From: Candidatus Babelota bacterium
GTDB lineage: Bacteria > Babelota > Babeliae > Babelales > JAHIUU01
Direction: 5' to 3'
NCBI GenBank assembly: GCA_018817025.1
Contig: JAHIUU010000001.1
Coordinates: 6,852-70,851 of the forward strand
DNA: 64,000 nt
Shown here: positions 6,849 to 64,000 of the stretch, piece by piece
Layout: every line of letters begins with the position of its first letter
How positions within the stretch are numbered: the stretch's first letter is position 1
The notes under the pieces: generated by a model
The model's database searches: none
Told to the model about the DNA's origin: nothing
The model's input: only the letters and a program-made list of their open reading frames with translations
Made by a program: the position numbers and the translations under genes

Positions 6849-7190
6849 TCACCTCTTTTTCTCTAAAACTACCGTTACATGACTCAGCCGCCTTCGCTGC
6901 ACAGCGGCTCGTCCCATCGCTGCCGGCTTGTAATATTTCAAAACTGGCCCCTGGTCAACTGCAATCTTCTTGATCATAAGCATCTCTGGAGAATCAACCT
7001 CCTTATGCAAATTCTTTGCATTCGCATATGCTGAATCGAGAACCTTAAGTATCGGTTTAACTCTTTTAGTCATATGGGCCTTTAAATAAGCCTGCGACTC
7101 GGCAAGAGATTTCCCCCGAATGACATCCGCTATCGGCCTGAGCTTGTACGGAGAAATTCGAATGTATTTACCTTCAGCTTTAACTTGCAT
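6849..7190 (-). CDS. rplV: 50S ribosomal protein L22
   Basis: 113 aa with YIRISPYKLRPIADVIRGKS. Synteny S19-L22-S3. Confidence 0.95.
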   Translation of the reverse strand: MQVKAEGKYIRISPYKLRPIADVIRGKSLAESQAYLKAHMTKRVKPILKVLDSAYANAKNLHKEVDSPEMLMIKKIAVDQGPVLKYYKPAAMGRAAVQRRRLSHVTVVLEKKR

Positions 7191-37251: not shown

Positions 37252-37319
37252 AAAAATAATATAAGACTGGCGCGCAAAATAATGCCAGATTGAATGTCTT
37301 TATCAGAGAGGGTAGAACG

Positions 37320-40300
37320 ATGAAAAAGCTTGTCACACTTCTTCTTATAACTTTCACAGCCGTTTCCTACGAATCTAATGCCGCACCCACCCAGGCAAAT
37401 ACCGCATTCCCCGGAATACACAATCAACAACTCTTGAACTACCACCTTGAACCATTGAGTTCCAGGCTCGGGGGAGGGGTTGTTAACCAGTTCTCTATTG
37501 GCAGCAAAAACAATATTTGGGGAACAACAACCAATCACAAGATTGTGAAATGGGATACCAATAACAAGAAGTGGGTAACCGTTCCAGAAAAACAAAGTAA
37601 GGGAAGGCTCGACATGCTTTCCGTCGCCCCTGACGGTAGAATGTGGGGTGTCAGCGCATCCCAAATAATCTACCACTGGCAAAATAACCAATGGAACAGG
37701 TATGCAGGAAAGCTTAAAAAAATCTCCGTTGGAAGCAAGGGCGGCCACCACGTGTTCGGGGTCAATGCAGCCGGCAGGATATACCACCACCCGTGGGCAA
37801 GTAAATGGGGTTATGTCCCGCTTAAGGATGAAGATACAGGCACAAACAAAATCGCTAAAGACATCTCCGTAGCCAGCGACGGTTCTCTGTGGGCAATATC
37901 AACTGATGGCCTTATCTATAAGAATTCGGTTCATAAGGATGCTGCATATAACAAACGAATCGCTCCTGGAAAATGGACGCTAATCCCTGGAAAACTGGAA
38001 CAAATAAGCGTTGGAAGCAGATTACGAATATTTGGAACAAATAAAAATCACATCGTCTTTCGAAGAAACGTCGGACGAGATAACTGGGCCGCTATACTAC
38101 AAAATTTTAAATCGATTGACGTCGCTGAAGATGGAACGCTCTGGGGAATAGGAAAAAACAACAAAATCTACGAAGTTCATGATACGTTCTTTGGAAACCG
38201 ACTATCAATCGTTGGCGGTATGCGTTCGGTTGGCGACCTAAACGCGGTTTATGATCACTACCGAACAAAAAAACATGAACATCCATTTAACGAATACAAA
38301 GGAACCTCGCCGTTTCTGGAAAAATACTCTTGGTCATCATGGATAGCCCTTCAAGGCGATGAGCGTCTCAAAAATGATATCGAGTTTCTAAAAAACCAAC
38401 GCGACACACTCCAAAAATCTTATGCTGAACGTGCGCTTATTACAAGACTAAAACTAAAATACCTCGAACGTCTCGCCCGATATGATCACAAGAACAAACG
38501 CATCTATGAAGCGTTTATAAATCTCCCTTATCTAGGGCACTACCTCCTAGAACTAAAAAAACTTGTGGATAACAGAAATGAGCTGGTCTCCTACCCCATA
38601 TTAACACGCGTAGAACCAGTAAAATCCAACAGTTTGCTCCCTCTCCAGTCAGCAATTACAACCATTATTAGTCGAGCAAGCGCCCTTGTCGACGAAACAA
38701 CAGGTGATTTTAGGTCATATACCTCTCTACAAAGATATTATTTAAGAAAACTCTTAATCCCTAAAACAGAGGCTGAACGAAAAAATGGAAGTCAAGACAT
38801 CAGGCTTCCTGATCTTCTCGAAGATGCAACGAAACTACTCTCTCTCAGTGACGCGCTGGCGCAAGCGCGTAACAAGTTCGATGCTTCGATCAGCAACCCT
38901 GAAGCAAGCAGCTGGCTCAAAGATTACGAGCAACGGGCAACCTGGATAGAAAAAATTCGTTATCTTGTTGAAAGCATGGCTAGCCCAGAGTTCACCGAGA
39001 TCCTCAAAACAGACAATAAAACCTCGCTCGAAAAACTCTTCAAAGATGTCAAAAGTTTCTTGTACGCAACAACCGAATATGGTAGCCGTAGATCACTTCT
39101 AACAAGCTGGAGCACAAAGTTCTCACAAACTGAGCGTTCGAGACTAGAAGCCTTGATCGAAGCCGGGTTAAATAAGATAGAGAAAGAAAAAGAAAGGATC
39201 CAAGAAACAACCGTCAAGACGTTTATGGGGCTACTCGCAGAGACAAAAGCGCAACAATTTCTCGTCTCAGCGGTTAGCTCTGGTGAAAACCAAGATTTGC
39301 TCTTTAAAAATCTGAAAACACTGAGCGAACAAGTAGCCTCTCGCCCTCTCAGTGAAGCCGAAGTATATCTTGAGTTGATCAATAAACTTGAAGATTTTTC
39401 GGCCAAGGGATATTTTAACTTCGATGTCCCAACAAAAAAAGCTCTCCTCGAGGGGTATATCGACGAAGGAAAAAAGCTCTATCTCTCCATTCTTAAAGAA
39501 ATTGGAACCAGAGATAGAGTCATAGCCGCCGCAGGAGCCGCAGCTTCTTCCGACCCAACACAGCAAGAAAAATATGAACAGTGGCTTAAAACAACGACCG
39601 CCATCACGGAAAAACTTGTTTCCAAGACAAGCCGGTCACCCGAGGAAACAACCGCCCTTAAAAATCTACTCCCCCTGCTTGACGACCCAACACGCGGGCT
39701 CAAGGAACTCTTTCCAGCACACACCAAAGCTAAAATTTCCAGCCTCATCACCAAGCTCAAAACGGTTGTACCTGCGGCTAAAACAAAAGTAAAAATCGTT
39801 GGCTCCATCGTCCAGAAAGTTAGCCCTGAATCTCTGACAACAACACTTAAAAGCCTACATGAAGCATTTAACGATTACTCGGCAAGAATTCATGCGAATC
39901 AAACCCTACAGGCGCAGTGGTTAAGCGATCTCGAAGTTATCGTAAAAAACAGAATCATGCTTCCCAACCAAAATCAATTTGATAACTTAATCAATCTTAT
40001 TAAAGAGACAAATGATGCAGACTGGCTTGCTGAAGAGTGGTTCACCCGTTTCACACCAGCACAGCAAAGTCAACTCAAAAATCTCGTCGCTCAAGGTGAA
40101 CAACCAATTGACTATAACAGCATGTTTTCCTACTTCAGAGAGAACAGATCCCAGCTCTCCCCACAAGTACTAATCGATCTTATCGCACTTCTCATTGAAC
40201 ACCCGTCTTCAAAGCTCAGTAAAAACGAAAATCAACGAGCATGGATCATACGGGAAGCCAAAAACGAGGCCAATAAGCGGTTTAGCCAAGAAGAAAAAGA

Positions 40301-40730
40301 AAATCTGAACCGAGTACTATCTGAAACAGAAACACCAGAGCCAACTTTAGCTCAGCCACCCGCTGCACGAACAACCGGTGAACAAACACAACTCTGGAGA
40401 AATCAAGTCGATAACTGGAACCGACAGATACTTGACTGGCGAGCGGCGGGAATTGCGACAATGGACCAACCAACAGCAGAAAAAACTAAATCTGATATGG
40501 CAAACGTCAAATCGAAAATGGATCAACTGAGTGACCAGGATCTGCCTCCTGACCTACAAAACCTTCTTGATGCCGGCATGACTGCGCTATCGGGCCTGCA
40601 AACGCAGGTGCAAAACCGAATCAATCAGGTCACACCCAAACAAACACCACTGCTAAGAAGACCTGCTCGAGGGAGAGTGATGAGTCGTGTGCCAACAACA
40701 AGAGTGCGTCGTGGTGGCGTCAGGAGATAA
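37320..40730 (+). CDS. Large secreted protein: signal peptide, six tectonin-like propeller repeats, ~850 aa unrecognised helical region and an Arg-rich tail
   Basis: 1136 aa from ATG 37320, with a GAGAGGG SD upstream. The signal peptide is MKKLVTLLLITFTAVSYESNA/AP. See the repeat feature and findings. The start is trimmed 10 codons relative to the ORF track. Confidence 0.8.
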   Translation: MKKLVTLLLITFTAVSYESNAAPTQANTAFPGIHNQQLLNYHLEPLSSRLGGGVVNQFSIGSKNNIWGTTTNHKIVKWDTNNKKWVTVPEKQSKGRLDMLSVAPDGRMWGVSASQIIYHWQNNQWNRYAGKLKKISVGSKGGHHVFGVNAAGRIYHHPWASKWGYVPLKDEDTGTNKIAKDISVASDGSLWAISTDGLIYKNSVHKDAAYNKRIAPGKWTLIPGKLEQISVGSRLRIFGTNKNHIVFRRNVGRDNWAAILQNFKSIDVAEDGTLWGIGKNNKIYEVHDTFFGNRLSIVGGMRSVGDLNAVYDHYRTKKHEHPFNEYKGTSPFLEKYSWSSWIALQGDERLKNDIEFLKNQRDTLQKSYAERALITRLKLKYLERLARYDHKNKRIYEAFINLPYLGHYLLELKKLVDNRNELVSYPILTRVEPVKSNSLLPLQSAITTIISRASALVDETTGDFRSYTSLQRYYLRKLLIPKTEAERKNGSQDIRLPDLLEDATKLLSLSDALAQARNKFDASISNPEASSWLKDYEQRATWIEKIRYLVESMASPEFTEILKTDNKTSLEKLFKDVKSFLYATTEYGSRRSLLTSWSTKFSQTERSRLEALIEAGLNKIEKEKERIQETTVKTFMGLLAETKAQQFLVSAVSSGENQDLLFKNLKTLSEQVASRPLSEAEVYLELINKLEDFSAKGYFNFDVPTKKALLEGYIDEGKKLYLSILKEIGTRDRVIAAAGAAASSDPTQQEKYEQWLKTTTAITEKLVSKTSRSPEETTALKNLLPLLDDPTRGLKELFPAHTKAKISSLITKLKTVVPAAKTKVKIVGSIVQKVSPESLTTTLKSLHEAFNDYSARIHANQTLQAQWLSDLEVIVKNRIMLPNQNQFDNLINLIKETNDADWLAEEWFTRFTPAQQSQLKNLVAQGEQPIDYNSMFSYFRENRSQLSPQVLIDLIALLIEHPSSKLSKNENQRAWIIREAKNEANKRFSQEEKENLNRVLSETETPEPTLAQPPAARTTGEQTQLWRNQVDNWNRQILDWRAAGIATMDQPTAEKTKSDMANVKSKMDQLSDQDLPPDLQNLLDAGMTALSGLQTQVQNRINQVTPKQTPLLRRPARGRVMSRVPTTRVRRGGVRR
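37479..38177 (+). repeat. Six tandem protein-level repeats (26-48 aa) of tectonin/TECPR-like beta-propeller blade type
   Basis: Repeat cores: FSIGSKNNIWGTTTNHKIVKW, LSVAPDGRMWGVSASQIIYHW, ISVGSKGGHHVFGVNAAGRIYHH, ISVASDGSLWAISTDGLIYKN, ISVGSRLRIFGTNKNHIVFRR and IDVAEDGTLWGIGKNNKIYEV. 'SVG' and 'SVA.DG' types alternate. Confidence 0.7.
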
Positions 40731-52759: not shown

Positions 52760-54844
52760 TTATTTCAGATCAGGCGCAATCAAACGAATACGACCGGTCT
52801 CTTCCTCGACAGCGACAACCTTAACTTTTAGCGTATCGCCAACTTTGAAATCCTGTGCTAACGTTCGCTGCCTATCCCGGGCAATACTCGAAATATGCAC
52901 TAATCCGTCTTTTCCTGGAACAAGCTCAACAAACATTCCAAACTCAGCAACACGCCTCACTATTCCATCTACCGTGGTGCCAACTTCGATGTCACCTACC
53001 AAGGTTCTGACCCACTGCTCAGCCTTGTGCGCATCTTTTGATGCAGACGAGTAGATACGAACTAGCCCATCATCTGTAATGTCAATTTGCGTATTGGTCG
53101 AAGCGGTAATCTCTTTAATGCTTTTACCACCGGGCCCAATAACCGTACCAATTTTTTCTGGGTCTATCTTAAGCGAAATAACCCGCGGCGCCAATTCCGA
53201 CAACTGAGCCCGAGGCTTATCAAGCACATCGCGCATAGTCTTAATGATATGCAAACGACCAGTACGAGCCTGCTCAAGAGCGCGCTCGAGAAGATCCCTT
53301 GTTAAACCAGCTTTTGCCTTGATGTCCATCTGAACAGCCATGATACCAGTGTCGGTTCCTGTTATCTTGAAGTCCATCAACCCAAATGCGTCTTCTGAAC
53401 CAAGAATATCGGTTAAAACATGAGTGTTCCCATCGGAATCTTTCATCATACCCATGGCAATACCGCCAACCATATCTTTTATTGGAACACCAGCATCCAT
53501 AAGTGCAAGCGTTGTCGCGCAAACGGTTGCCATAGAAGATGAACCATTCGATTCAAACATATCAACAACCGAACGAATCGTGTAAGGAAATTTATCCTGC
53601 TCAGGAAGCACATGCGCGAATGAACGCTCAGCCAAATAGCCGTGTCCAATTTCACGCCGACCAACACCCCGAATAGGTTTTACCTCGCCGGTGGAAAACG
53701 GAGGAAAGTTGTAATGCAACATAAACGTTCGCTCGTAATCACCTTTAAGGTTTTCCATTCTTTGCGCATCTTGAGCCGTCCCAAGCGTCAAACTTGCCAA
53801 TGCCTGAGTCTCGCCACGACGAAACATCGCAGATCCGTGAACTGTTGGCAAAAGACCTATCTCAGCAGTAATGGGCCGAACCTGGTCGAACGGTCTCCCG
53901 TCAAGTCGACTATTCTTTTGTGCAACAAGATTTGGAAGATATTCTTTTAATAAAGAATCAAACAAGTATAAAATTTTTGGTTTTGAAGTTATACCAGACT
54001 CGATCTCTTTCTCGAAGAATTCAACAACATCTTTCTTCAAAGCTTTAAGAGCCTCCGATTGCTCAGCCTTTGTCGGCGCAAACAAAGTCTCACAGTTTTC
54101 TGGCTTGAAATGAGCCTGAACCTTTTCTTCCCACTCTTTCCAAACCTCAACACTGGACAAGTCTGGCTCTTCGACGCTCAATTCTTTTTTAATATCAAGC
54201 TGCCACTTAACCTGCACCTTTATTTGCTCATGAGCTAAAAATAACGCCTCGATCAGATCAGCTTCAGAAAGCAAGTCGCAATGTCCCTCAACCATACAAA
54301 TACCATCATTGGTACCAGCAACAATAAGGTCAACACTAGACTCTTTCATCTCTTCAGCAGAAGTGTTCAATACCCATTTTCCGTCAACCCGTCCAACCTG
54401 TACCGCACCAACTGGTCCCAGGAAAGGAATCTTTGAGATGGTCAACGCAAGAGATGATGCAATAAGTCCAAGAACCGCTGACGGAAACTTTCCATCATAC
54501 GAGTAAACAGAAGAAATAACCTGAACCTCATTAAAATAATATTTGGGAAATAATGGGCGAATCGGACGATCAATCAGCCGAGAGGAAAGGACCTCAGTAT
54601 CGTTAAGTCTTCCTTCTCGCTTAATGTAGCCACCCGGAAACTTTCCAGCAGCAGAAGTCTTTTCCCGATACTCAACAGTAAGTGGAAAAAAACCAATAAA
54701 ATCTCTCTCCTCAGAGGTCGCAACCGCCGTCGACAGAACAATCGTATCACCGTGTCTTAGCCACGCAGCACCATCCGCCTGCCTCGCAAACTTATCAACT
54801 TCAACTTCAAACCCCAATTCTGGTAGTTTAAAAATTTTCGACAT
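52760..54844 (-). CDS. pnp: Polyribonucleotide nucleotidyltransferase (PNPase)
   Basis: 694 aa with two RNase PH-like domains (RLDGRPFDQVRPI), a KH domain (IGTVIGPGGKSIKEI) and an S1 domain (GIVRRVAEFGMFVEL). Confidence 0.97.
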   Translation of the reverse strand: MSKIFKLPELGFEVEVDKFARQADGAAWLRHGDTIVLSTAVATSEERDFIGFFPLTVEYREKTSAAGKFPGGYIKREGRLNDTEVLSSRLIDRPIRPLFPKYYFNEVQVISSVYSYDGKFPSAVLGLIASSLALTISKIPFLGPVGAVQVGRVDGKWVLNTSAEEMKESSVDLIVAGTNDGICMVEGHCDLLSEADLIEALFLAHEQIKVQVKWQLDIKKELSVEEPDLSSVEVWKEWEEKVQAHFKPENCETLFAPTKAEQSEALKALKKDVVEFFEKEIESGITSKPKILYLFDSLLKEYLPNLVAQKNSRLDGRPFDQVRPITAEIGLLPTVHGSAMFRRGETQALASLTLGTAQDAQRMENLKGDYERTFMLHYNFPPFSTGEVKPIRGVGRREIGHGYLAERSFAHVLPEQDKFPYTIRSVVDMFESNGSSSMATVCATTLALMDAGVPIKDMVGGIAMGMMKDSDGNTHVLTDILGSEDAFGLMDFKITGTDTGIMAVQMDIKAKAGLTRDLLERALEQARTGRLHIIKTMRDVLDKPRAQLSELAPRVISLKIDPEKIGTVIGPGGKSIKEITASTNTQIDITDDGLVRIYSSASKDAHKAEQWVRTLVGDIEVGTTVDGIVRRVAEFGMFVELVPGKDGLVHISSIARDRQRTLAQDFKVGDTLKVKVVAVEEETGRIRLIAPDLK

Positions 54845-54871
54845 ATATGATCCCCAAAGTAGAACTGTTTT

Positions 54872-55147
54872 TTATTTCTTTATTCCCAATTTATTCGCCA
54901 CAAACTCGTAGCGCTCAAAACTTGTCTTCTTTAAATAACCAAAAAAAGCACGTCGCCGTGCAACCAGCCTTATGAGGCCGCGACGGGAGTGCTTATCTTT
55001 TGGAAACGATTTCAGATGACTCGCAATATGCTTTATTCTTTCAGTAATCAAAGCAATTTGCACTTCACTTGAACCGGTATCTATCTCAGATCGCCCAAAC
55101 TCTTTGGCGATCGTCTCTTTTATCTCTTTTGTTATCATTTCTGGCAT
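54872..55147 (-). CDS. rpsO: 30S ribosomal protein S15
   Basis: Contains DTGSSEVQIALITERIKHIASHLKSFPKDKHSRRGLIRLVARRR, the S15 pattern. Confidence 0.95.
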   Translation of the reverse strand: MPEMITKEIKETIAKEFGRSEIDTGSSEVQIALITERIKHIASHLKSFPKDKHSRRGLIRLVARRRAFFGYLKKTSFERYEFVANKLGIKK

Positions 55148-55266: not shown

Positions 55267-58200
55267 TTATCCAAGCGAAATCTTATCCAAGCCAACTTCC
55301 ATCTGCTCCTCATCACGAGCCCGCTGCTCGAGCACAGAAACATCCTCGCCGATATGTTTCAATTTGAAGGAAGGAACGCCTGTTCCAGCAGGGATAAGCT
55401 TACCAATTATCACATTTTCTTTCAAGCCGAATAAGTAATCCACCTGCCCCATAATAGCAGCCTCCGTCAAGACTCTCGTAGTCTCCTGAAACGATGCGGC
55501 CGAAAAGAAGCTCTCTGTGCCCAAAGAGGCCTTGGTTATACCCATCAAAAGAGGCTTTGCAACGGCAACCTTCTTACCTTCCTTGGCGATAACCTGGTTG
55601 ACCGACTGCAGATGAACCCTATCAACACGATCTCCAATGACGAAACTGGTATCTCCTGGATCAACAATACTCACTTTTCTTAGCATTTGACGAACAATAA
55701 GCTCAATATGCCTATCGTGAATCGTTACCCCCTGGAGTGTATAAACCTCCTGAATCTCCTTCACAAGATATTTTTGAAGTTCATCAGGACCGAGAATCCT
55801 CAAAATATCGTGCGCATTAGGAGTCCCTGAAGTTAGCGAATCACCCGCCTTTACGCTGCCACCATCTTCAATATTGATATGTTTACTTCGTGGAACACTA
55901 TATTCAAAGGTCTGCTCATCGTCGGTCGTCAACGAAATACGACGCTGCCCCCGATGAATACCGCCAAATCGAACAATCCCATCAACATCAGCAATAACCG
56001 CGGTGTCTTTTGGAACCCTAGCCTCAAAAAGCTCTGCGACGCGAGGAAGACCCCCTGTAATATCTTTTGTTCGTTTTTCTTCTTTCGGCAATTTTGCTAA
56101 AACGCTACCCGGTGTAATCTGGCTACCCTCATCAACATAAAGCATCGCCCCGGTCGGTAAGTAGTAACGAGCCTCTTCTTCTCCGTCAGCATGCTCAATA
56201 ACAATACACGGCTGGTGCTTCTCGTCTCGTATTGCCAGAATCGTCTTGTACGCCTGTTCAGCGTCTTCCCGGTATTCTTCCCGATAGGTAACATTCTCAA
56301 TAAGATCTACAAACTTAATCCTGCCACCCTTTTCAGAAATAATCACCTTATGAGGATCCCACTCTGAAACCATGGCACCAGACTCAACAACCACACCATC
56401 GTCAACGAGAAGAAGTGAACCATGTTCAAGGTCGAATAACTCCAACTCTCTTCCATCCTCAGAAACGATCGCCAACTTCGCCTTACGGTTCATTACAATC
56501 TTTGAACCATCTTCTTTGGTTACAAGCTGCACACCGCGATATTGGACTTTTCCACTAAAGTTGGTCTTATAGAAATACTGCTCAAGCAAGCCACTTGCGG
56601 TACCTCCGATATGGAACGTTCTCATAGTAAGCTGCGTTCCAGGCTCACCAATCGACTGCGCGGCGATAATCCCAACAGGCGCACCAACATCGACAAGCTT
56701 CAACGTCGAAAGATCCATGCCGTAACATTTTGCACAAATACCACGACTGGACTGACAGGTTAACACCGATCGAACAGGAACATGCGTTACCGCAGACTCC
56801 TTAACCTTTGTCAACACATCATGGGTTACCATTTCACCCGCACGCATTACCAACTTACCACTCACAGGATCTTTAACATCTTCTGCTATAATTCTTCCAA
56901 AGACTCGATCAGGTAACGACTCAATCGTGTTACCTGACTCTTTTAAGTCAGACACAACAATATACCCAAGCGTACTACAATCATCTTTTGTAACAATAAC
57001 ATCCTGCGCAACATCAACCAATCTTCGAGTTAAGTACCCAGAATCAGCTGTTTTTAACGCCGTATCAGCCAAACCTTTTCGCGCTCCGTGCGTTGAAATG
57101 AAATATTCAAACACACTCAACCCGCCTTTAAAGTTCGCCAAAACAGGGACTTCCATAATTTCGCCCGACGGCTTCGCCATCAAGCCTCTCATTCCGCCAA
57201 GCTGTCTTATTTGTTGACGCGATCCACGAGCCCCAGAATCAAGAAACATGAAAACCGGATTAAACTTCGCGCTTGTCTTGTCTTTATTCAAGCAGACTTG
57301 GCGATCTTGCTCCTCAAGCTCACCGATCATATCATGGGCAACATCCTCAGTTGCACGCGCCCAAATCTGAATAACTTTATTGTATCGTTCACCGTTGGTA
57401 ATTGCACCATCGCGGTATAGCTTCTCGATTTTAACAACTTCTTTCTTGCAAGCCTCAACAATTCCAGCCTTCGACCCTGGAACAACCAGGTCATCAACGG
57501 CAAGAGAAATACCGCCCAGCGTCGCATGCATAAAGCCAAGATGCTTTATCTCATCAAGAACGCGAACCGTCTCGGCCTCACCACACGCACGGTATAGCTT
57601 GGAAACAAGTTTCACGAGATCATTCTTCTTCATTGCCTTGTTGATCCACTCAAATAAAGCACCATCAGGCAAAATCTCGTATAACAACACCCGACCAACA
57701 GTCGTCTCCACTAACTTGCCATCACTCAAGCGAACCTCGATAGAAGCGTGCAGGCTCAGCTTGTCATGCTGATGCGCAAACACTACCTCCTGAACACTTG
57801 AAAACTTAAGACCTTCGCCAACAACATTCTTTCGTCCTTTAGTCATAAAATAGAGACCCAGAACCATATCCTGCGAAGGAACGGCAATTGGCCGACCATT
57901 AGAAGGAGATAGAATATTATGGGAAGAAAGCATTAGATTTTTTGCCTCTAACTGAGCTCTCTTACTCAACGGAACATGCACCGCCATCTGGTCACCGTCA
58001 AAGTCTGCGTTAAATGCAGAACAAACAAGCGGGTGAATCTTGATTGCCTTTCCTTCAACGAGAATCGGGTAAAAAGCTTGAATCCCTAATCTGTGCAGCG
58101 TTGGTGCTCGGTTTAGCAACACTGGTCTATCCTGAACCACCGTTTCAAGAGCGCCCCATACTTCAGGGGCCAGGGTTTCAACCATGCGCTTAGCAGATCT

Positions 58201-59394
58201 TAAACTCATCGCCAACTCACATCGTTGAAGTTCAACGTAGACATATGGCTTGAAAAGCTCAAGTGCCATAATCTTTGGTAGACCACATTGGTATAATTTT
58301 AATTCTGGCTCAACAACAATAACGGAACGACCTGAATAGTCGACACGTTTACCAAGTAAGTTCTGTCGGAATCGCCCCTGCTTTCCACGCAACATCTCAC
58401 TTAACGACTTCAATGGTCGCTTATTGGAACCACGAACAGGCTGCCCCCTTCGTCCATTATCAATAAGCGCATCAACCGATTCCTGAAGCATTCGCTTTTC
58501 ATTTTTAACAATTACCTCAGGAGCCTCAAGCTCAAGGAGACGACGCAAGCGAATATTTCGGTTCAAAACCCGTCGATAGAGATCATTCAAGTCTGAACTG
58601 GCAAAACGACCCCCTTCCAATGGAACAAGCGGACGCAAATCAGGAGGAATAACTGGCAATACCTCTAAGACAACCCACTCTGGTCGCAGATTCGCCTGGA
58701 GCAACCCAGAGAGCACTCGATACCGTTTTGCCAAGCGATGCTTTGCCGCAACAGAAGCTGTTTGCTTATACAACTCCTCAAGCCGGCGAACTTCAAAATT
58801 CAAGTCTATCATTGAAAGAAGAACACGAACTGCCTGAGCACCCATACCTGCTTTAAACAGCGTATCTTCATCATGGGCACTGACGTAGTCTTCGTACTCT
58901 TGACTATTCAAAAGCGTCTTTATGGGATATGGCGAGCCACCCTGATTTAAAACAATATAACTATCAAAGTAGATAACACGCTCTAAGTCTTTTACGGTCA
59001 TTCCCAAGATCAAACTTAAATAGCTTGGTATTCCCTTTAGATACCAAATATGGCACACCGGAGAAACAAGCTTTATGTGACCCATTCGTTCGCGGCGAAC
59101 CCTTGACTGAATAACCTCTACCCCGCACTTTTCGCATGTCACCCCACGGTGTTTCATGCGTTTATATTTACCACAATTACATTCCCAATCCTTGACGGGA
59201 CCAAAAACTCTTGCGCAAAACAAACCATCTCGTTCCGGCTTCAATGTTCTATAGTTGATGGTTTCTATCTTTTTCACTTCACCATACGAAAGAGAAAGTA
59301 TCTTTTCCGGTGAAGCAATGCCAATTTTAATTGCGTCAAATTGGGTGGTGTTAATATATTCTCGGAAACGCTCAAGTATCCTATTATTCACCAA
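55267..59394 (-). CDS. rpoC: DNA-directed RNA polymerase subunit beta'
   Basis: Contains [14 protein letters not shown], a zinc-binding [20 protein letters not shown], and the catalytic NADFDGDQM. No ATG is available at the 5' end: the start is TTG (59394) or GTG (59391), inside the last rpoB codons and downstream of an AAGGAG SD. Confidence 0.98.
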
Positions 59395-62300
59395 CTTTCT
59401 CCTTGCTTGCCTTAAATAGATCGACTTGCAACCCCAAACTTTGAAGTTCTTTCACTAATACATTGAAAGATTCTGGAACTCCAGGATCAGGAATATCATC
59501 ACCCCGCACAATCGCCTCATACGCCTTAACTCGTCCGTTCACATCATCAGACTTAACGGTCAGCATCTCCTGCAAGGCATATGCTGCACCATAGGCGTAT
59601 AATGCCCACACTTCCATCTCTCCTAGTCGCTGTCCTCCAAACTGTGCTTTACCACCAAGCGGTTGCTGCGTTATCAGCGAGTACGGACCAACCGAACGCG
59701 CATGTAGCTTGTCGTCAACCAAGTGATTCAGTTTCATCATATATATGTATCCAACGGTCACAGGTTGTACAAATGGCAAGCCCGTCTGCCCATTATAAAG
59801 CTTGTACGCTGCATCCTGCGGTAGGCCGAGATCCTTTAACATAGGACGGATCTCTTCCTCATAGTCTGCACCATCAAAAATTGGTGTCTTGAAAAAGACC
59901 CCGTCCTTTCCTGCTTTATGAGCAAGATCAAGCACCATCTCTTTGCCTGAGTGCTTCTCAAGATCCTCAACAAAAGACTTTCCATAGTACTTTTCTAGAT
60001 GTTCTTTCGTCTTTGCATAGCGCACCGATTCAAGATTTTGAGCAAACCAATTTCCTGCCTTTCTTCCCACCATACCGAGAATCGTTTCCAAGATCTGACC
60101 GATATTCATACGCGCAGGAACACCAAGCGGATTCAAAACGATATCAACCGGTGTTCCATCCTCGAGATATGGCATGTCCTCAACGTTAACAATCTGGGAA
60201 ATAACCCCTTTGTTTCCATGACGACCTGCAACCTTATCCCCGACAGATAAATGCCGTTTCATCGCAACATAAACACGAACCATTTTTATGACACCTGACG
60301 GTAAATCATCGCCTTTTCGCAATTTGCTAATCTGCTCTTCTTTAAGCGCCTGCAACACTGAAATCTGATTCTTATACGATTCTTTAAGCTCCTTGAGCTG
60401 AGCAGCAAGCGTTTTATCTGTTAATTCAACTTGCAAGAGTAAATCTAACTCTGCGTCCAGAAGCTTTACTTCAGAAAAAGAGTCTTTCTCCAAGAATTTT
60501 TTAAACTTGGCTCCAGACTTCGGCTTCTTCCCCTTAAGCAAAGAGGCCACTCTTTTGATTATTGCTCGGTCAAGAATTGCAATGTGCTGACAAAAGTCAT
60601 CCTCTATTTTCGCTGTCTTAATTGCAGCAATCTCTTTGTAGCGTTTATCTTTTCGTATCCCACTTCGAGAGAAAAGCTTAACATCAACAACCGTTGCCTC
60701 AACTCCTGGTGGAACTCGTAACGAGGTGTCCCGAACTTCCCGAGATTTCTCTCCGAAAATTGCGCGTAAAAGCTTCTCCTCAGGAGAAGCCTGCACGTCA
60801 CCCTTAAGAGTCACTTTTCCAACCAGAATCTCACCCGGCTTAACCCTGGTTCCAATTCGAACAATTCCGTCGTCATCAAGCGCTTCCAAATCTTTTTCGC
60901 TAACATTTGGAATGTCTCTCGTTATCTCTTCCGCTCCTAGCTTGGTGTCTCTAGCTTCAACAACAAACTCTTCGATATGCACCGAAGTGAAAACGTCTTC
61001 GGCAACAAGACGCTTACTAACAACAATAGCATCCTCAAAGTTGTAACCATGCCACAACATGAACGCAACCAAAACATTGCTTCCCAAAGCCAACTCTCCG
61101 CGATTTGTCGCCGCACCATTGGTAAGCACATCACCACGCTCAACACAATCACCAATCTTAACGACAGGAACGTGATGAATCCAGGTGTTGTGACTCGAAC
61201 GAGCAAATTTCTTGAGTTCGTAAATGTCAACCGGACGAGAAAGCCACTCTTTGCTAATCTTGGAATCATCGCCCCCGCCATCAACAATACGAACAACAAT
61301 CTTTTCTGAGGAAACATACTCAACAATACCACCGCTTCGAGCAACTAACACAGCACCCTCTGCAGCCCCAAGCTCTGCTTCCATACCAGTCCCAACAAGT
61401 GGAGGCCGACACTTTATCAATGGAACCGCTTGCCGTTGCATATTCGATCCCATTAATGCACGGTTTGCATCATCGTGCTCCAAAAACGGAATTAGTGACG
61501 TTGCAACCGAAACAAGCTGTCGAGGAGAGGCATCAACATAGGTAACATCTTTTGCGTCAACCGTAATAATGTTTCCGCTCTTTCGAGCAAGAACCTCTTT
61601 ATCAGTAATCTTGTTTTTTGCGTCGACATTGATCGTCGCCTGTGCAACAAGTTCATCGACCTCTTGAAACGCATCGAGGCAAACAACATCATCCCCAATG
61701 ACACCATCATTCACCGGACGATACGTTGTTTCAATAAAGCCAAGCTCGTTTACTCGAGCATACGTTGCTAGAGAAGAAATAAGACCAATATTCTGCCCTT
61801 CAGGAGTCTCGATCGGACAAATTCTTCCGTAGTGAGAAGTGTGTACATCCCGAACCTCAAAAGTCGCTCGCTCTCTTGTAATTCCACCAGGCCCAAGCGC
61901 AGAGAGTCTTCTTTTGTGTGCCATTTCTGCTAGTGGATTTGTTTGATCCATAAACTGAGACAACTGACCCGTACCAAAAAACTCTCGTAATACCGCCGCA
62001 AGAGGCTTAACATTCAAATAGTCATATGGCATGAGCGCAGCGTGATATTCCTGCAAGCGAAACCGCTCTTTTGCGATTCGCTCGACTCGAGCAAGCCCTG
62101 CATACAGCTGACCTTGCAATAATTCACCAACGAGCCTCACGCAACGATTACCAAGATGGTCAATGTCATCAAGATCGCCCTCACCCCGTTCTTTCAAAGC
62201 AACCAAATACTTCAAAGTTTCGATAATATCTTCACGCGTCAGCTGGGTAACCTCTTCGTCAATCTCTAGACCTAATTTTCTGTTGGTACGAATTCTGCCT

Positions 62301-63739
62301 ACCCGAGTAAGATCGTAAAAGCGGGGATTAAAAAACAGGTTATCGAAAAATTCTTCCATAACCTGTACCGCGGGAACATCGCCCGCACGAAGTTTACAGT
62401 AAACCTCTTTGAGCGCATCAAGACGGCTCGCAGCAGAACTTTGCGCAAGCGTCAGCGCAATCGTTGGCTGATACACAAAGCTTGAAGACTGAATAATATT
62501 AAGAACATACGCATCCTGCTTTGCAATCGTATCGAGAATCTCGCTCGTCAAAACATCGCCACGCTTTGCAAAAATCTCACCGGTCTCAAGATCAACAACA
62601 TCATCCCCTAAAATACGATTGAGGAGACTATTTTTTCGCACATGAAGATGAGTAACCTTGTGCTTTGCAAGGTCTTTAAGCATCTTGTCTGTAAATCGCT
62701 GACCAACTAAAAACTTCTTTGCCAAACTTTCGGGCAACGCTTCCGCTTCCAAACGCTGGCCAAGCAGCGACTTATCAACTGGTTTGTAGAAATCACCTTT
62801 CTTAACGGTAATTGAATCAAACTTATAGAAAAGTGGCAATATTTCATCACGCTCAATACCCAACGCCTGCAAAAAGGTCGTTACCGAAATTTTCTTTTTC
62901 TTATCAATTCGAACATGAAGAATGTCGTTGTGGTCAAACTCAAAATCAAGCCAAGAACCGCGAGCAGGAATTAATCGAGCCATGTGACAGGGCTGGCCTC
63001 GAAAATCTTTAATCTTTTTACTTAACGTAAAGACAACGCCAGGTGCTCTGTGAATCTGGCTAACCACGACCCGATCAACACCATTGATCAAGAACGTCCC
63101 ATGACCGCCTAAGCGAAATGATCCATCAGCACCTTCGTATAAATCACACATAACCGGCAAATCGCAAAAGAAAACCTCTTGCTCTTTAATATCCTTAACA
63201 ACTCTCTCCCCAGATTCTTTCCCCCCAGACTGAGTATCCCAGCTAATAAGCTGTACCTTAACCTTTAACGGCATCGAATATGTTTTACCACTAAATCGAC
63301 ATTCATCAACCAGCAGTGGCGCCTTCACAAAAACCCGAGATGAACATTTTTTACAAGAGATATAGCGCGCTGTATTCTTTTTGCACTTAGGACAAGAGCC
63401 TGAATCCTCCAGCCGAGAACAATCAGATTTTTTGCATGAAGAACAGCTCCATTTGTATCGATTCTCGATCCCCGTAAGCTGACCACAAACACAAGCCCAA
63501 TCACCCAGCTCATAACTTACAAACTCTAATGAAAGCGCATCTTGATGCTCAACAGGAAAGACGTCTCGAAAAATTTTCTCCAACCCAACATTTTTACGTT
63601 CGAACGGCAAAAAGTCTAGCTGGATAAAGTTGTTGAATGACTTCGATTGAATTTCTATAAGATTCGGCAGAGAAACAACCTCCTTAATCTTGCCAAAAGA
63701 TCTCCGGATTACTCCCTTACCTCGCGAAAATCGAGACAT
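59384..63739 (-). CDS. rpoB: DNA-directed RNA polymerase subunit beta (with a Cys-rich N-terminal insertion)
   Basis: 1451 aa with [49 protein letters not shown] and [12 protein letters not shown] at 63739 with an AGGAG SD. Confidence 0.98.
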
Positions 63740-63777: not shown

Positions 63778-63813
63778 AAAGTATCACCAGGGTCAGACCC
63801 CTGGTGATACTTT
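63778..63813 (-). terminator. Perfect 15-bp hairpin in the rplL-rpoB spacer (attenuator/partial-terminator candidate)
   Basis: AAAGTATCACCAGGG-tcagac-CCCTGGTGATACTTT. It begins 28 nt after the rplL stop and ends 39 nt before the rpoB ATG. On the minus-strand RNA it is followed by AGUGGUUUUGGG. Confidence 0.5.
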
Positions 63814-63840
63814 TTATATCTTACTTGCTACAGGAATCGC

Positions 63841-64000
63841 TTATGATAGCTCAACCTTTGCTCCGGCAGCCTCCAGAGCCTCCTTCATCTTCTTTGCATC
63901 ATCTTTAGGAGCAGATTCAGAAACAACACACGGGGCCCCCTCAGCCATCTCTTTCGCATCCTTCAGAGACAAGCCCTGAATCGATGCTCTGAGAGCCTTA
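63841..64000 (-). CDS. rplL: 50S ribosomal protein L7/L12, C-terminal fragment (5' part beyond the window end)
   Basis: Own reverse-strand translation: ...[52 protein letters not shown]. This matches the L7/L12 C-terminal domain (GLGLKEAKDLVE.AP...K..AE..K..LE.AGA.VE.K). Confidence 0.88.

Follow-up and report, generated by a model that had tools for sequence, protein, structure and literature searches.

Bacterial RNA polymerase (RNAP) is usually described as carrying structural zinc in the beta' subunit only, where C70, C72, C85, and C88 are the ligands of the N-terminal zinc-binding domain of the Escherichia coli protein, and its lineage-specific insertions are described as metal-free BEAN or sandwich-barrel domains. 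BEAN-type inserts of the beta subunit occupy five sites (uD3, uD4, uD5, and the N- and C-terminal halves of uD2) and contain no metal (PMC11515920). We analyzed a 64,000-nucleotide stretch of DNA from a Candidatus Babelota bacterium (GenBank assembly GCA_018817025.1, contig JAHIUU010000001.1, forward-strand positions 6,852 to 70,851), referred to here as the window. The gene for its beta subunit, rpoB (window positions 59384 to 63739, minus strand), is an uninterrupted open reading frame (ORF) of 1,451 codons. An earlier inspection of the same DNA, the sequence-only reading, had pointed to a cysteine-rich insertion of about 60 residues near the N terminus of the encoded protein, with enough cysteines for two Zn(Cys)4 sites. 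It is very likely that this insertion is a real, conserved structural module of a metal-binding type. To the fuller statement, that it is a genuine, independently folding zinc-type module with nested ribbons and a role as a contact surface, we assign a probability of roughly 0.6.

The window RpoB is 49% identical to E. coli RpoB and contains all six of the Pfam domains Rpb2_1, Rpb2_2, Rpb2_3, Rpb2_45, Rpb2_6, and Rpb2_7, in order and above their gathering cutoffs. In a phmmer comparison with all PDB chains, residues 8 to 80 aligned with E. coli beta residues 8 to 77 and residues 144 to 305 with E. coli residues 82 to 225, leaving residues 81 to 143 unmatched. The same gap appeared for every bacterial or plastid RNAP of solved structure, and no RNAP among these chains had an insertion at this site. 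MAFFT alignment with E. coli RpoB placed a 60-residue insert, residues 81 to 140, after E. coli residue 77. The module (window positions 63320 to 63499, minus strand) lies between E. coli residues 77 and 82, and the 61 residues from D80 to A140 correspond exactly to positions 63320 to 63502, the coordinates given by the sequence-only reading. The nine cysteines that it had counted, arranged as CxC...CxxC and CxxC-x9-CxxC, are present in the translation as C83, C85, C99, C102, C107, C116, C119, C129, and C132, with the layout CxC-x13-CxxC, C107, CxxC-x9-CxxC. Nine of the 20 cysteines of RpoB are inside the module; nine in 61 residues compares with 0.8% cysteine in the remaining protein (binomial P = 1.5e-9). 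With 13 lysines and arginines versus five aspartates and glutamates, the module has a net charge of +8.

The window RpoB exceeds E. coli beta by 109 residues. The proposal that the insertion accounts for part of the unusual length holds, as the module contributes 60 of these residues. Inserts of 13 residues (residues 200 to 212) and 15 residues (residues 1077 to 1091) supply 28 more, and the three inserts together make up 88 of the 109. The 15-residue insert (window positions 60466 to 60510) follows E. coli residue 987 and presumably falls within the SI2 region.

The module sits in the beta1, or protrusion, domain, in its N-terminal half (beta1a) and upstream of the lobe. This domain comprises Thermus residues 17 to 139 (beta1a) and 334 to 395 and consists of an antiparallel sheet of four strands with helices at its back (PMC3001067). 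Its edge strand, strand 4 (G106 to E110 in Thermus aquaticus, with the I-K-E motif), pairs with the RNAP-interacting domain of Mfd and is the RNAP docking strand for both Mfd and CarD (PMC3001067). The T. aquaticus beta1 chains 3mlq_A and 4xax_A aligned by phmmer with residues 27 to 80 of the window RpoB and stopped at the insert. In an AlphaFold2 model of residues 1 to 610, built with 137 sequences, the module comes directly after a long predicted strand (residues 69 to 78). The 13-residue insert, L200 to G212 (window positions 63104 to 63142, minus strand), is a predicted beta-hairpin with strands at residues 200 to 202 and 208 to 210 and a predicted local distance difference test score (pLDDT) of about 85. 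It directly follows a predicted strand (residues 180 to 195) that contains I184-K185-E186, the Mfd/CarD contact motif. If the strands that precede the two inserts are antiparallel neighbors in the sheet, then both inserts would leave the same end of the sheet. The 13-residue insert accompanies the module and is absent from E. coli and other phyla. This companion, like the occurrence of the module outside RpoB described below, goes beyond what the sequence-only reading had noted.

The closest homologues of the window RpoB are named Dependentiae (TM6/Babeliales). All 120 of the best full-length homologues (63 to 82% identity; 1,406 to 1,457 residues) contain the module, as do N-terminal fragments from Dependentiae that span the region. 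A scan of GTDB with a back-translated pattern, at one genome per species, found the module in 107 species representatives. Every taxonomically specific title among these records was Dependentiae, Babeliales, or TM6, in agreement with the earlier suggestion of a lineage-specific insertion. Many other module-bearing records are automatically labeled "bacterium" or "Pseudomonadota"; for example, the metagenome-assembled genomes (MAGs) of loci L010, L011, L018, L022, L023, and others are titled "uncultured Pseudomonadota bacterium" despite a Dependentiae-type RpoB module. In alignments the RpoB N termini of Methylomirabilota, Pseudomonadota, and Firmicutes are without the module. A search of 1.84 billion representative proteins with a hidden Markov model (HMM) of the module gave 18 matches at an E value of 1e-3 or lower. 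Two of these were repeat proteins covering only 20 positions of the profile, and the others were clusters or fragments of Dependentiae RpoB and one Streptomyces-type family; no RpoB of another phylum was matched. No viral contig was found to carry the module, and a viral origin is rejected on this basis. Every relative examined has the module, which is apparently phylum-wide in Dependentiae. The genomes that carry it number over 100 and were assembled independently of one another, and some of them, such as AP025250.1, are complete chromosomes.

The module is conserved in detail. Mean column identity is 71% within it, versus 63% over the whole-protein alignment, and W81, G86, G90, R94, Y95, W97, L110, Y126, R135, and V136 are invariant or nearly so in addition to the cysteines. 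In a set of 170 unique module sequences extracted with a pattern that demanded C83 and C85, R94 and R135 are invariant, and lysine is found at position 103 in 148 of 170, at position 104 in 153 of 170, and at position 121 in more than 80%. The 14 sequences missed by the pattern are mostly truncated fragments; among them, P0022 has a complete module whose flank is variant, and P0030 has valine at position 83.

The five beta insertion sites listed in the 2024 survey of insertional domains in beta and beta' all lie outside this part of the protrusion, and the survey makes no mention of zinc or of Dependentiae (PMC11515920). The genome paper of C. destructans does not mention the module. No account of the module was found in the literature searched, which did not cover the older catalogue of Lane and Darst (2010; beta-In1 to beta-In3), and because that catalogue lies outside the comparison, the term "undescribed" carries this caveat. 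The expectation that this would not prove to be a familiar beta insertion was borne out by its absence from solved RNAPs and from the 2024 catalogue. The module is a lineage-specific insertion in bacterial beta whose structural type and site are both new and which apparently has not been described before.

The sole carriers of the module outside RpoB are rare proteins of about 1,250 residues, referred to here as the Streptomyces-type fusions. They include P0239, annotated as a hypothetical protein of Streptomyces chartreusis, and P0255, from a Streptomyces sp., together with P0250 and P0251; the loci are L081 (10001 to 13759), L082 (2880 to 6719), L083 (6001 to 9777), L084 (2832 to 6608), and L085 (6001 to 9822). 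An N-terminal extension of about 120 residues is followed by a beta1a segment similar to residues 33 to 211 of the window RpoB (30% identity; E = 7e-24), in which the module is present with all eight of the conserved cysteines, including the C129/C132 knuckle, as is a counterpart of the second insert of 12 to 13 residues. Further on are part of Rpb2 domain 6 (similar to residues 904 to 1007 of the window RpoB), the beta C terminus, and beta' domain 1, which contains a separate zinc motif. Pfam found no other RpoB or RpoC domains, the NADFDGD motif is absent, and the fusion proteins, judged from these sequence features, are putatively catalytically dead. Their beta' part is 24 to 33% identical, about equally, to Dependentiae beta' and to six other bacterial beta' proteins, which leaves the two shared inserts as the sole tie of the fusions to Dependentiae-type RpoB. 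Retention of both inserts and all eight cysteines in a family that is otherwise only about 30% identical suggests that the inserts form one functional or structural unit.

In four independent neighborhoods (L081, L082, L083/L084, and L085) the fusion gene lies directly downstream of a short gene for a NACHT/AAA_16 STAND NTPase. The flanks are variable, and several contain defense-type genes (Mrr_cat, pPIWI_RE_Y, helicases, AAA_15/21, NB-ARC, and an integrase-like gene). PADLOC recognizes neither the fusion nor its pairing with the STAND gene, and the NTPase matches Avs1b weakly. Homologues of P0239 on phages or plasmids were not found beyond ordinary rpoB and rpoC, and no description of the fusion was found in the literature searched. 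The fusion and the STAND NTPase may represent a candidate new conflict or regulatory system.

AlphaFold2 predicts with confidence that the module folds as a small, beta-rich unit. The pLDDT of the module was 84 to 92 within the model of residues 1 to 610, and a 63-residue model of the module alone, built with 60 sequences, had a mean pLDDT of 90.3. The confidence of the second model suggests that the module behaves as an autonomous mini-domain. The elements assigned by DSSP are a strand at residues 80 to 82, a helix at 91 to 94, a hairpin at 96 to 99/105 to 107, and strands at 124 to 126 and 137 to 139; the 63-residue model shows one short, four-residue helix and a few short strands. The cysteine knuckles are placed by the model at hairpin turns or adjoining predicted strands, as in zinc ribbons. 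Foldseek comparisons of the module with PDB and BFVD returned no significant fold neighbor. The top nonsignificant PDB matches were an MCM zinc finger, Rpb12, RNF126, reverse gyrase, and the TFIIE-alpha zinc finger (best E = 0.78; TM-score about 0.4). The weak BFVD matches were FmdB-type ribbons, and the best of the BFVD matches (E = 0.029) was a phage protein annotated with a 4Fe-4S ferredoxin-type domain. The 610-residue model matched RNAP beta chains only. Assignment of the 61-residue segment to a known family was also attempted with Pfam, which gave only subthreshold matches, to tRNA-synt_1g and to Zn_ribbon_3 (E = 0.043; 13.7 bits versus a cutoff of 27). As modeled, the module resembles a zinc ribbon at the level of fold class, and it had no significant match to any described family.

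The cysteines fall into four knuckles, all on the minus strand. C83-V-C85 (window positions 63485 to 63493) and C129-K-K-C132 (63344 to 63355), the latter at the turn of the predicted hairpin 124 to 126/137 to 139, would form an outer zinc site. C99-S-S-C102 (63434 to 63445), at the turn of the predicted hairpin 96 to 99/105 to 107, and C116-P-K-C119 (63383 to 63394) would form an inner site. The outer four are cysteine in 170 of 170 aligned modules, C83 and C85 having been required for extraction. Position 99 is cysteine in 159 of 170 and positions 102, 116, and 119 in 154 each, whereas C107 is variable (84 of 170). All eight conserved cysteines are present in 154 modules. Eleven modules keep the outer four and none of the inner four, five keep the outer four and one of the inner four, and no module has the inner four with an outer cysteine lost. 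The reduced modules (42 to 58 residues) of P0217, P0218, P0040, P0237, P0245, and others are without the four inner cysteines and retain the outer four and a pair of lysines at the tip (the KK tip); such modules may be natural "one-zinc" variants.

Because the inner four cysteines vanish together in 16 variants while the outer four stay, the two sites are probably nested, with C83/C85/C129/C132 around an inner zinc hairpin formed by C99/C102/C116/C119. A nested design predicts coupled loss of the inner quartet and strict retention of the outer one. The predicted strands are compatible with such an arrangement: the CxC comes after strand 80 to 82, C129xxC132 and C99xxC102 each lie at the turn of a hairpin, and strands 80 to 82, 124 to 126, and 137 to 139 could form a sheet at the base. 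Zinc binding itself would be consistent with the conservation of the cysteines and with the coupled loss of the inner quartet.

The sequence-only reading was right that there are enough conserved cysteines for two Zn(Cys)4 sites, but the pairing that it implied is probably wrong. It would have C83/C85/C99/C102 form one site, as in the CxC-x12/13-CxxC of beta', and C116/C119/C129/C132 another, as in a classical CxxC-x9-CxxC ribbon. The spacing of the cysteines suits both of these known patterns. In addition, hhalign aligned 15 residues of RpoB with a 15-residue beta' motif at 87% probability, and BLAST paired the start of the module with the beta'-type zinc motif of P0239. However, the hhalign match ends before the second knuckle, and sequential pairing would leave both sites half destroyed in the 16 natural variants that have zero or one of C99/C102/C116/C119 and all of C83/C85/C129/C132, in which case the leftover halves would have no reason to be invariant. 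Sequential pairing is less likely than nested pairing, and we consider it rather unlikely.

If the sites are nested, the outer ligands would staple the base of the module, at the points where the chain departs from and returns to the beta1 sheet, and the inner Zn(Cys)4 hairpin would steady the tip and be dispensable in some lineages. The module and the hairpin at residues 200 to 212 would together enlarge the exposed surface of the protrusion as a strongly basic knob with the conserved KK tip. The role would be noncatalytic: an additional surface, on the upstream-facing side of the polymerase, to which a transcription factor peculiar to the lineage or nucleic acid (fork or upstream DNA) could bind. 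Contact with nucleic acid or a factor, the docking role suggested by the sequence-only reading, is a tentative part of this proposal. It would be consistent with the location of the module in a domain whose edge serves Mfd and CarD, with its net positive charge, with the persistence of the KK tip in variants without the inner cysteines, and with the retention of the unit in the Streptomyces-type fusions.

Several points weigh against this reading. The analysis identified no candidate partner for the module. The Streptomyces-type fusions have not conserved the lysines, which argues that nucleic acid contact is not a universal property of the module. The solvent-exposed, upstream-facing location is derived indirectly, as is the nested pairing, which is drawn from predicted strands and the pattern of variants only. 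The Cys4 sites could hold iron in vivo. The first knuckle resembles the beta' zinc-binding domain, in which the CxC pairs with the next CxxC, and if the module were a true copy of that domain, then sequential pairing would be favored.

Such a copy could have arisen by duplication of the neighboring beta' zinc-binding domain into rpoB, which would place a zinc finger that contacts nucleic acid or sigma on the opposite pincer. The WxCxCG first knuckle is common to RpoB residues 81 to 86 and RpoC residues 70 to 75, rpoB and rpoC are adjacent, and the motif occurs twice in proteins of the P0239 family as well. However, the likeness spans only 15 columns, the module profile matched no beta' protein among the 1.84e9 representatives at an E value of 1e-3 or lower, and the remainder of the module (RYxW, GxGRL/CSRL, TARY, and SRV) has no beta' counterpart. 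Duplication of the domain is therefore an unlikely origin. The longer motif DWxCxCG is found in the window at positions 63482 to 63502 (RpoB residues 80 to 86) and 59170 to 59190 (RpoC residues 69 to 75), and it is doubled in several of the Streptomyces-type fusions; the shared motif may reflect a duplication origin or convergence. It is also possible to see in the module a purely structural brace with no partner, a zinc-stapled loop that stabilizes beta1 in a parasite with a reduced genome. Much of the conservation is in cysteine, aromatic, and glycine residues and might be purely structural, and the failure to find a partner is in keeping with a brace. Yet the beta1 domain of all other bacteria folds without the module, variants that lost the inner zinc site still have the surface KK tip, and the module is intact in the highly diverged Streptomyces-type fusions, which shed most of beta. 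We regard a simple brace as quite improbable.

The possibility that the cysteine clusters bind iron, either as rubredoxin-like Fe(Cys)4 or as Fe-S, would make the polymerase responsive to redox state or iron inside the protist host. Eight conserved cysteines in CxxC pairs could ligate iron, and the nonsignificant Foldseek match to the phage protein annotated as 4Fe-4S ferredoxin type points in the same direction. However, RpoB has no rubredoxin CxxCG/CPxCG signatures and no CxxCxxC ferredoxin motif, the best structural neighbors are zinc ribbons, and the dispensability of the inner site in several lineages would be odd for a sensor. Iron binding is very improbable. Virtually no weight is given to an artefact of assembly, frameshift, or contamination, as the same insert is found in more than 100 independently assembled genomes and the outer cysteines are kept in all 170 modules, so that neither of the outcomes that the sequence-only reading had said would undo it, an assembly artefact or a lack of cysteine conservation among relatives, was found. 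Intein and overlapping-gene readings were considered together with assembly and frameshift errors and were rejected; the insert is in frame within an uninterrupted ORF and recurs in many genomes. A 62-residue ORF at positions 63325 to 63513 is an out-of-frame mechanical ORF within rpoB.

The preferred reading, a nested zinc module with a contact surface, may extend to the Streptomyces-type fusions, although we hold the following extension to be doubtful. The module and the hairpin would be a new functional surface, a built-in DNA or regulator contact specific to Dependentiae, that was carried into an RNAP decoy or sensor fusion. The surface would have moved along with the flap region, the beta C terminus, and the beta' zinc/clamp-helix region, and the decoy or sensor might, as speculation, be directed at phage proteins that hijack RNAP. 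In that case the shared inserts would be traces of an rpoBC segment that passed in ancient times between a Dependentiae-type lineage and actinobacteria, and they would mark the module as an interaction face rather than decoration.

The genes around rpoB follow the canonical order rplL-rpoB-rpoC. Upstream of rpoB (about positions 63830 to 64000, minus strand), the sequence reads as the C terminus of a putative L7/L12-like protein. The intergenic region between rplL and rpoB contains a perfect 15-bp inverted repeat (positions 63778 to 63813) with seven G-C pairs and a 6-nucleotide loop; the T tract that comes after it on the minus strand, the transcribed one, is weak, and we take this hairpin to resemble the E. 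coli rplL-rpoB attenuator. The beta' gene, rpoC (positions 55267 to 59394, minus strand), comes directly after rpoB, and its translation retains the canonical N-terminal zinc-binding motif, a stretch of 23 residues. If its first possible start codon, a TTG at 59394, is used, the rpoC ORF overlaps the end of rpoB by 11 nucleotides (59384 to 59394). The lack of an ATG near the rpoC start points to initiation at another codon and to coupled translation of beta and beta'. Directly downstream of rpoC (positions 52760 to 55147, minus strand) are rpsO (S15, 91 residues) and pnp (PNPase, 694 residues) instead of rpsL-rpsG-fusA, the genes found downstream of rpoC in many bacteria. The window was also searched for Mfd, which would bear on continued use of the Mfd-binding edge of beta1. 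The candidate, an ORF of 1,146 residues at positions 37290 to 40730 (plus strand), was rejected because it is a Tectonin-domain protein (Pfam E = 6e-31), and the window has no second ORF of similar length. The Tectonin domain is best known from eukaryotes, which makes this gene notable in a parasite of protists.

With a double-zinc module, the core enzyme would be predicted to hold four zinc ions instead of two. Its presence is a simple sequence signature of Dependentiae RpoB that could be used for binning, for taxonomy, and for checking mislabeled MAGs, and it provides a well-defined target for work on the organization of transcription in obligate parasites of protists. The module may be moderately surprising to an RNAP specialist. 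The shared inserts link a housekeeping polymerase to an uncharacterized, STAND-linked, RNAP-derived family that is possibly a new conflict system, and this tie to a STAND-linked pseudo-polymerase would raise the importance of the module if it is functional.

Comparison with known systems places the module apart from the zinc sites already described in RNAPs. The Rpb2 of archaea and eukaryotes has a Cys4 zinc site near its C terminus, in the part that belongs to the clamp; the module is N-terminal, and the C-terminal region of the window RpoB has no cysteine cluster. The zinc ribbons of Rpb12/RpoP, TFIIB/TFB, TFIIS, and TFIIE-alpha share with the module a generic fold class only. Those ribbons belong to separate subunits or factors, whereas the module is an insertion in the second-largest subunit and has no sequence similarity to them. 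Like the beta' zinc-binding domain, the module is a small Cys4 element in a large RNAP subunit with the first knuckle (D)WxCxCG, and the spacing from this knuckle to the next CxxC is x12 in beta' and x13 in the module. Unlike that domain, which has one site and is in the clamp, the module is in the beta protrusion and has two proposed sites; its CxC most likely pairs with the last CxxC rather than the next, and there is no significant similarity past the 15 columns. The Streptomyces-type fusions resemble the Dependentiae module in their eight cysteines, in equivalents of R94, Y95, L110, Y126, R135, and V136, and in the beta1 context, and they differ in that the second knuckle is CxC rather than CxxC and the lysines are not conserved. 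The BEAN fold consists of two antiparallel bracket-like elements (CATH 3.90.105.10), which the model of the module does not show, and no BEAN-containing chain was among the Foldseek matches listed for the module. Unlike BEAN inserts, the module is at none of the five sites; it is a cysteine-rich, zinc-ribbon-like insert of 60 residues in beta1a. Like SI1/beta-i4 and SI2/beta-i9 of E. coli and the BEAN inserts, it is a clade-restricted addition to a surface loop in a beta domain that is itself universal; its distribution tracks phylogeny, and other bacteria carry out catalysis without it. As a double-zinc module in the protrusion of beta, apparently present throughout the phylum, it would add to these inserts a new type at a new site.

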